NCBI RefSeq assembly: GCF_001677475.2
Contig: NZ_CP015229.1
DNA: 64,000 bases
Strand: one strand, 5' to 3'
Origin: Escherichia coli
GTDB lineage: Bacteria; Pseudomonadota; Gammaproteobacteria; Enterobacterales; Enterobacteriaceae
The translations under genes and the position numbers were made by a program. Positions 23,732 to 24,115 of this stretch are shown here, piece after piece (the stretch's first letter is position 1; each line of letters starts with the position of its first letter). The notes below the pieces were generated by a model. That model was not told the DNA's origin, searched no databases, and worked only from the letters and a program-made list of their open reading frames with translations.

Positions 23732-24115
23732 ATGCAGAATCATTACAATGACCTTAAGCCAATTGCCGAAATGATGTATCCGGATCCAGCAGTAGAGGAA
23801 TTAAAGGCTATTGCTGACAAAATGCGTTTAAGTGAACGCCTTGTTGATATGAATCAGGTGATGGAACTTACTACCCTTAGCCGTCGCACATTGCTAAACC
23901 TTGAGGCTCGCGGAGAGTTCCCCGAACGCGTACAGGTTACGGAAGGGCGTAAGGCCTGGTATTTAAGTGAAGTGATCGACTGGATAAACAATATTCCTCG
24001 AGCTTCTGAATATTGCCGCGTACCTGTCCCAAAAAAGCCAGATGCGGCGCTATGCCTCAAGATTGAGCGTGTACGTCGCAATGCACGGGATGGTCGCTAT
24101 AAGTTGATTGGTTGA
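23732..24115 (+). CDS. AlpA/Xis-like HTH DNA-binding protein
   Basis: 127 aa; ...VMELTTLSRRTLLNLEARGEFPERVQVTEGRKAWYLSEVIDWINN...; SD AGGGGGA. Confidence 0.6.
   Translation: MQNHYNDLKPIAEMMYPDPAVEELKAIADKMRLSERLVDMNQVMELTTLSRRTLLNLEARGEFPERVQVTEGRKAWYLSEVIDWINNIPRASEYCRVPVPKKPDAALCLKIERVRRNARDGRYKLIG

Follow-up and report, generated by a model that had tools for sequence, protein, structure and literature searches.

What does a second AlpA-type gene do between the capsid genes and the cos site of a phage-inducible chromosomal island (PICI)? The question is raised by a 64-kb stretch of DNA (the window, meaning the whole stretch that was analysed), in which an Escherichia-type chromosome surrounds a PICI of about 11 kb integrated at tRNA-Pro(GGG). 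The gene encodes a protein of 127 amino acids, here called HTH127, for which a first-pass annotation had offered two roles, island excisionase or late regulator of the capsid and packaging genes. Our analysis suggests that HTH127 is probably the transcription regulator of its own operon and not an excision factor of the island. More specifically, we propose a cassette-specific regulator or autoregulator, probably an activator, of the capsid operon, and we regard the chances of this proposal as evenly balanced.

The island and its second AlpA-type gene

The order of the genes on the island is that of Gram-negative PICIs (PMC6092414, PMC10111431). The features are as follows:

15540-15616: tRNA-Pro(GGG), the insertion site of the island
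15598-15625 and 26593-26620: attL and attR, the 28-nt direct repeat bounding the island
15807-17066: tyrosine integrase gene, which begins the rightward order
17566-17772, + strand: int-proximal AlpA gene, the first of the island (68 aa; PF05930, 33.3 bits)
19410-21215: D5-type primase gene
22329-23369, + strand: lambda-E-like major capsid protein gene (346 aa; PF03864 Phage_cap_E, E=3.8e-41; phrog_29, E=4.3e-91)
23379-23720, + strand: lambda-D-like head decoration gene (113 aa; PF02924 HDPD, E=2.3e-15; phrog_49, E=1.2e-26)
23732-24115, + strand: HTH127 gene (127-aa AlpA/Xis-type winged HTH with N- and C-terminal extensions)
24142-24148, + strand: cosQ, GGGTCCT, which aligns with lambda and EcCICFT073 cos1
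24172-24183, + strand: cosN cohesive end, GGGCGGCGACCT, exactly the lambda left end and alignable with EcCICFT073 cos1 as well
24219-24289, + strand: island-type cosB, with GGTGGTGGTGG at 24219-24229 (+48 to +58) and the inverted CACCAACACACCAACC at 24274-24289
24317-24859, + strand: Nu1-like terminase small subunit (TerS) gene (180 aa; PF07471, E=9.3e-24; phrog_57, E=6e-53)

Two more genes of the island lie 3' of the Nu1-like TerS, one for a phrog_1561 protein of 93 aa and one for a homologue of PerC. The start of the Nu1-like TerS was taken from the RefSeq annotation of near-identical islands, in which the capsid protein likewise has its 346-aa form. A capsid reading frame from TTG 22242, which would overlap the repeat array described below, was rejected as a mechanical over-extension, RefSeq having the shorter form. 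With these coordinates, two observations of the first-pass annotation are confirmed, namely that the gene is the second AlpA-type gene of the island, the first lying beside int, and that it stands between the capsid genes and cos. The gaps within E-D-HTH127 are 9 nt and 11 nt, with the HTH127 start 11 nt after the D-like stop, and the HTH127 reading frame, which runs from ATG to TGA, has a strong Shine-Dalgarno sequence (AGGGGGA) 5-11 nt upstream. The short gaps and the Shine-Dalgarno sequence indicate that HTH127 is co-transcribed with E and D on one transcript.

Several repeats occur elsewhere on the island. Directly 3' of the D5-type primase gene, at 21230-21450, TGTTCACC is present nine times in both orientations (11 copies observed in the window against 1.9 expected). 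P4 alpha-protein iterons have this motif, and the cluster is probably the replication origin of the island. An exact 17-nt repeat, ATGAATAAAAAGGGAAA, is found in this putative origin (21417-21433) and again in cosB between the two GGTGG-type sites (24252-24268), where it has the position of lambda IHF site I1, and it may be a site for a host bending protein common to ori and cosB. Close to its right end, where the PerC gene is followed by attR, the island has about seven tandem copies of an 8-nt unit, GGCTGGCT, in the interval separating the two (26156-26217). Upstream of the first alpA, at about 17490-17530, there is a different direct repeat belonging to that gene, GTGGGTACCGTTTT / GTGGGTACTGTTTT, which is consistent with a separate operator for each AlpA-type protein.

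HTH127 is a real AlpA/excisionase-type HTH protein, as the first-pass annotation claimed. It matches Pfam PF05930 Phage_AlpA over aa 36-85 (34.9 bits against a gathering cut-off of 21, E=1.4e-8) and phrog_2790, labelled 'excisionase and transcriptional regulator', over aa 11-109 (E=1.8e-48), and the AF2 model has helices at 40-47, 51-59 and 78-86 with strands at 67-70 and 73-77. According to this model, aa 40-86, within the core (aa 36-90), form a MerR/Xis-like winged HTH. The mean pLDDT is 69.5, with 81-85 in the core and poor prediction in the extensions. The nearest solved structure is the GIsul2 excisionase 8c3t (phmmer E=1.6e-10), which is also the top Foldseek match (target-normalised TM 0.78; 52 residues aligned, with 44% identity and an rmsd of 1.4 A), and the BldC-DNA complexes 6ama and 6amk are among the other structural neighbours. 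The HTH is therefore central and does not lie in the second half of the protein as first described. The N-terminal extension (about 35 aa, two short helices in the model) had been recognised, but the conserved C-terminal extension of about 37 aa, with a basic helix at aa 105-119, had been missed. No Nu1 Pfam match was obtained for HTH127, and a sequence search of the PDB gave no match to Rpp (6HLK/6HN7) or to 1J9I. In RefSeq the protein is named generically, as a 'helix-turn-helix transcriptional regulator' or AlpA family member.

The extensions are specific to the family, and about 100 homologues, none of them from outside the Enterobacteriaceae, retain all three parts of the protein over its whole length. 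Of 1.84 billion cluster representatives searched with a profile, only five matched HTH127 at E<=1e-30, and the matches beyond these covered only the generic HTH core. None of 50,697 phage genomes had a tblastn match at E<=1e-3. The substitution pattern of the gene is one of purifying selection, with a dN/dS of about 0.18 for the whole gene, 0.07 for the HTH and 0.33-0.40 for the extensions, all of them rough values because dS is near saturation.

The capsid cassette and its repeat array

We examined 16 cassettes of the form E-D-HTH127-cos, from about ten enterobacterial genera; the sources include E. coli, Buttiauxella, Scandinavium, Kosakonia, Kluyvera, Superficieibacter, Pluralibacter and several metagenomic or viral contigs (the E-D-HTH127 set is the window, L001, L002, L004, L005, L008-L011, L013-L015, L017, L019, L052, L053 and L087). 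E, D and HTH127 were strictly contiguous in 16 of 16, and cos lay 3' of the HTH127 gene in all cassettes. The placement that had been called atypical is thus the invariant arrangement for this family. A profile search of genome contigs with the HTH127 family alignment returned three loci. In complete E. coli genomes the HTH127 gene had any match in 407 of 5426 (about 7.5%), 365 of them at 80% coverage or more, and the block of promoter, E and D had a prevalence close to this (394 of 5426 at the same coverage).

The surroundings of the cassette are far more variable. The integrases across seven islands are 4-36% identical to that of the window, against 52-100% for HTH127; the int-proximal AlpA/HTH_17 proteins of islands with the same cassette fall into at least five unrelated types; primases or helicases are of four kinds (D5, DUF927, AAA_25 and Toprim); PerC is present in some cassette-bearing islands and absent in others; and L009, L011, L014 and L016 lack the Nu1-like TerS or have a replacement for it, with HTH127 kept in L009 and L016. 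Because the neighbours on both sides vary in this way (int, AlpA, primase, PerC, TerS), the invariant unit is, as far as these loci tell, promoter-E-D-HTH127-cos, and HTH127 is the sole DNA-binding protein that always accompanies the array. The integration sites differ as well, including tRNA-Pro, the interval between nfeF and tRNA-Ile/mug, cspD/clpS, fis, and the inside of helper-prophage late genes. Islands of the last kind are known as helper-embedded PICIs (PMC10111431). L004, L005, L008, L015 and L016 are such islands, in the prophage Nu1 or major capsid (E) gene, and since they carry the cassette, the island brings an intact E homologue beside the split helper gene.

The array itself and the promoter next to it are located upstream of the capsid gene:

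22232-22267, + strand: four direct repeats spaced exactly 10 bp apart (TTATAC at 22232, TTGCAC at 22242, TTGCAT at 22252 and TCGCAT at 22262), the proposed HTH127 operator and the only such array in the window
22283-22288, + strand: -10-like hexamer TAGAAT, which pairs with TTCGCA at 22261-22266

When both strands of the 64-kb window were searched for arrays of at least three repeats, only this one was found, and 200 block shuffles gave 0.05 such arrays per window and none of four or more repeats. The only phased pair of the motif inside the island also belongs to it. Three to five direct repeats at exact 10-bp spacing stand upstream of the capsid gene in all 16 cassettes, and between genera the hexamers are kept although neither the flanks nor the spacers can be aligned. 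Against this, only seven of 13 cassettes were flagged when phased hexamers were sought with a strict, unbiased detector (at most one mismatch to the first unit), which was too rigid. Viral contigs scanned for TTGCAY-N4-TTGCAY-N4-TTGCAY held at least 120 such stretches; among the matches listed, four were an HTH127 cassette and the other 116 had neither an E-like capsid gene nor an HTH127 homologue. Two other explanations of the array were tried and rejected. Replication-origin iterons do not fit, as the array is the same across the four primase/helicase types and the origin has its own TGTTCACC iterons, and neither PerC nor the int-proximal AlpA fits as the binder of the array, since islands whose array is identical lack these proteins or have unrelated ones.

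For comparison, we used four cassettes without HTH127, those of EcCICFT073 (L003) and three relatives (L021-L023). Operator-like sites at the protein's own promoter, as looked for in an autoregulator, were found in 16 of 16 cassettes with HTH127, and a phased array of at least three repeats in none of the four without it, with the caveat that the EcCICFT073-type promoters, TTGC(A/T)(C/T)-16-TATAAT, do hold TTGCA-like elements at 21- and 9-nt spacings. E and D homologues are present in these cassettes (about 55% identical to those of the window in L003), and the slot before cos is occupied by a 137-aa protein (L003:2084-2497, the position of c1501), which had no similarity to HTH127 by BLASTP or HHalign. 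This slot protein matches phrog_53 'head maturation protease' (E=1e-8), in the C-terminal, Nu3-like part of that family, and is possibly a Nu3-like scaffold. The EcCICFT073-type cassettes also open with an extra conserved 68-aa gene (phrog_3255) of no assigned function. After cos, they carry either RppA or a full-length Nu1-like TerS gene of 543 nt (L022 and L023 compared with L003), an alternation that leaves the packaging protein unlinked to the slot protein before cos. When Fillol-Salom et al. expressed the genes 3' of ori one at a time, only c1503 (RppA) interfered with lambda (PMC6739421). This result is uninformative on HTH127 because EcCICFT073 lacks it.

The repeats and the protein appear to change together. 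The residues of the recognition helix or wing and the corresponding repeats are:

Eleven cassettes: SRRTL(L/I)NLE(A/T)R, wing GRKAWY; repeats TTATAC and TTGCAY
L011: R52G and A59K; repeats TTGTAC
L004 and L005: N56D, L57M and A59E, wing PGRTAWL; repeats TTATAC
L019: R52Q, wing GRYGWR; repeats TTAGAC / TTGTGC
L017: RRTILDMEK, wing GRYAWH; repeats a mix of TTGCAC and TTATAC

It seems that the repeat sequence shifts only where the recognition helix or the wing of HTH127 shifts, although overall divergence is a confounder here (the sequences fall into only about five independent classes) and L017, in which the recognition helix is altered but TTGCAC is kept, counts against it.

The position of the repeats relative to the promoter bears on the direction of regulation. 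In six genus-diverse cassettes a TGn-extended -10 (TGn-TAnnnT) follows the last strong repeat by 24-25 nt, which would put this repeat near -41, where a class-II activator binds. The E. coli type has one further repeat, which overlaps the TTCGCA-16-TAGAAT promoter, and its geometry is one helical turn off that of the other genera. In the window this promoter is the sole sigma-70-like site on the + strand of 21900-25400, and its TTCGCA overlaps the fourth repeat. Because the fourth repeat thus overlaps a plausible -35 with a 16-nt spacer, repression is equally possible in the window.

Head-to-tail binding on helically phased direct repeats is known from winged HTH proteins of the MerR/Xis type, among them lambda Xis, P2 Cox, 186 Apl and BldC. 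In the mechanism that we propose, HTH127 monomers would bind in the same way on the three to five (A)TTGCAC repeats, one helical turn apart, with the proximal site at about -41 of a promoter whose -10 is often TGn-extended and whose -35 is weak or absent. From there HTH127 would activate E, D and its own gene, and slight read-through or helper-driven transcription could grow into a self-reinforcing late burst. The N- and C-terminal extensions may serve cooperativity or contact with RNA polymerase. As a minor variant, the same anatomy would allow autorepression. In this mechanism HTH127 would not be the recombination directionality factor (RDF) of the island. The support for the model is co-occurrence throughout. 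Of the two roles first suggested, that of late regulator is the better supported, as the conserved phased array travels with the protein, and the association is closer with the capsid genes than with Nu1.

Excision, packaging and other readings of HTH127

Downstream of the gene, the distance to the lambda-type cosQ/cosN is 27 nt in the window, and cosQ begins 25-55 nt past the gene end in nearly all cassettes; in L014 cos is 416 nt away. Between GGTGGTGGTGG and CACCAACACACCAACC the island cosB has an A/T-rich segment, and its sites are presumed to be those of the Nu1-like TerS, not of HTH127. The GGTGG-type cosB is kept only where the Nu1-like gene is present, and L009 and L016 carry a lambda-type cosB. 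Loss of the Nu1-like TerS goes with the lambda-type cosB in these two, so cosB and TerS seem to be swapped as a pair. A PDB sequence search with the Nu1-like TerS gave no Rpp (6HLK/6HN7) or Nu1 chain, and its homology is by Pfam and PHROG only. A terminator between the HTH127 gene and cos was considered for the window and rejected, the hairpin being no more stable than shuffled sequences (z=-0.74).

The fold of HTH127 may be compatible with an RDF-type activity, and because of this we retain an excisionase, for the island's own integrase or for a helper prophage, as an unlikely reading. Its nearest solved homologue is a genuine excisionase (GIsul2, 8c3t) and the label of phrog_2790 includes this function. 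In EcCIMP1 the second AlpA (alpA_1) aids excision of the helper phage and not of the island itself (PMC11773190), which is a precedent for a second AlpA serving helper-prophage excision. However, an RDF co-evolves with its cognate integrase and is usually its neighbour, and the seven islands with integrases of 4-36% identity share HTH127 at 52-100%. The earlier reading of an island excisionase is further disfavoured by HTH127 proteins of 99-100% identity that occur with integrases of 20-22% identity to that of the window and with other att sites. The gene does not adjoin int but lies 6.7 kb from it, and a separate AlpA/HTH_17 gene stands beside int in every island with sequence reaching the integrase. 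In the window, the position of the PICI master regulator, the first rightward gene directly downstream of int, belongs to the 68-aa AlpA at 17566-17772 and not to HTH127, and this AlpA is the usual candidate for the master regulator or RDF. No phased repeats of the cassette-linked array motif, the presumed HTH127 site, were found near attL (15598-15625) or attR (26593-26620). At 127 aa with two extensions, HTH127 is also about twice the size of a typical RDF. Additionally, the blank tblastn search of the 50,697 phage genomes makes it unlike any deposited phage Xis and thus gives no support for a helper-Xis-like role as in EcCIMP1 alpA_1.

A role in packaging is suggested by the nearness of cos. 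Rpp are winged HTH proteins of PICIs that redirect the lambda terminase (PMC6739421, PMC9026076), and with this precedent HTH127 might be a cos-proximal accessory of the Rpp/Ppi kind that helps terminase assembly or termination at the cos of the island or blocks that of the helper, to which we give a small chance. Only 25-55 nt separate the gene from cosQ in nearly all cassettes, and a MerR-like winged HTH is common to the DNA-binding domains of HTH127, gpNu1 and RppC, with weak Foldseek matches to 6hn7_B and 1j9i. Yet the spacer between gene and cosQ has no conserved sequence, the L014 cos is 416 nt away, there is no sequence similarity of HTH127 to Nu1 or Rpp, the type of cosB and even cosN (L004/L005) changes independently of the recognition helix, and the association with the cassette holds without TerS. 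It is quite doubtful, in our view, that the array is instead read by a helper-phage factor of the lambda CII type or by a host factor, with HTH127 acting otherwise, for example on helper genes. CII binds TTGCN6TTGC flanking the -35 (PMC4651098, PMC2629481). The TTGC-N6-TTGC core of the array is the lambda CII box, the window array contains a perfect one (TTGCACTTGGTTGC, 22242-22255), arrays of other genera hold two or three in tandem, and the EcCICFT073-type promoters have TTGCA-like elements too, at their 21- and 9-nt spacings. On the other hand, about six single boxes per window are expected by chance, the arrays of L011, L004/L005 and L019 depart from TTGC, and the EcCICFT073-type cassettes, which have the same lambdoid helpers, are without CII boxes. 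From the last TTGC to the conserved -10 there are 27 nt, against 13 nt in lambda pRE. Ignition by CII is nevertheless conceivable because the predicted operator is built from tandem TTGC-N6-TTGC boxes, and E-D-HTH127-cos could then be a self-switching late module that is ignited by helper CII and locked on by HTH127, which we consider rather unlikely. Finally, the AlpA of Pseudomonas aeruginosa is reportedly an antiterminator, and HTH127 could be a processive antiterminator of this type that loads at the capsid promoter and reads through a hairpin or terminator before cos into TerS, a very improbable role. Terminator-like hairpins were seen by eye between the gene and cosQ in L011, L014, L017 and L004/L005, and at the same position in EcCICFT073, but the hairpin of the window does not exceed shuffled sequence in stability (z=-0.74), cassettes without a downstream TerS retain the HTH127 gene, and a PDB sequence search with HTH127 gave no P. 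aeruginosa AlpA chain even at E<=10.

Relation to known regulators and meaning for PICI biology

As a regulator of the capsid operon, HTH127 would share features with several known systems without being equivalent to any of them. Its winged HTH core is like that of the GIsul2 excisionase 8c3t, PF05930 and HTH_17, but in contrast to the GIsul2/AlpA family it is about twice as long, has conserved extensions limited to a narrow enterobacterial family, and is neither beside the integrase nor co-varying with it. The int-proximal AlpA is the master regulator of Gram-negative PICIs (Fillol-Salom 2018, PMC6092414), and HTH127 shares with it the Pfam family, the kind of element, the direction of transcription and a presumed role as transcription factor. 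Unlike that AlpA, which varies freely among islands with a common HTH127, HTH127 is encoded in the late zone, at a distance of 6 kb, and is tied to the capsid genes and not to int. With the EcCICFT073 / Rpp (c1503) cassette (PMC6739421) the island has in common E, D, a slot protein, cos, a winged HTH packaging protein and the 93-aa protein, but the slot protein there is unrelated to HTH127, and Rpp, which stands after cos, is a different protein.

The dual RDF-regulators P2 Cox, 186 Apl and P4 Vis, like Streptomyces BldC, switch promoters on or off by binding to direct repeats that are arrayed at intervals of about one helical turn. HTH127 resembles them as a small MerR/Xis-like HTH protein, but the kinship is by fold only, its predicted target is a capsid promoter and no recombination role is indicated for it. 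The late operon sid-delta-psu of P4 encodes its own activator and capsid-modifying proteins and ends at cos, so it is, by analogy only, another satellite late operon with its own regulator (in the case of HTH127, a predicted one) and with cos at the end. The P4 delta protein is of the zinc-finger Ogr type, acts on inverted TGT-N12-ACA sites and can switch on late promoters of the helper as well; HTH127 differs from it in being a winged HTH.

The fold family, the generic RefSeq annotation and the PHROG family are already known, and our literature search found no paper treating a late-zone AlpA-like protein of this kind. What appears to be new is the long variant represented by HTH127, its strict coupling to a portable Gram-negative PICI capsid cassette and the predicted operator. 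Prior work on PICI regulation has concerned the int-proximal AlpA and Rpp, and in the literature searched we found no description of the timing of capsid and packaging gene expression in Gram-negative PICIs. A capsid-operon regulator of this kind would caution against labelling every AlpA-family protein of an island an 'excisionase'. In case HTH127 only autoregulates three genes, the finding would be useful but incremental. If the self-switching module were true, HTH127 would be the missing late-gene switch and the module would be mobile regardless of integrase, replicon and TerS type, and if ignition by CII were true, the morphogenesis genes of a satellite would be wired directly to the lysis-lysogeny decision protein of its helper. 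The cassette reaches about 7.5% of complete E. coli genomes and the helper-embedded PICIs of several genera, and if it has a regulator of its own that acts on a recognisable operator, the timing of late genes in these islands would become accessible to direct tests.
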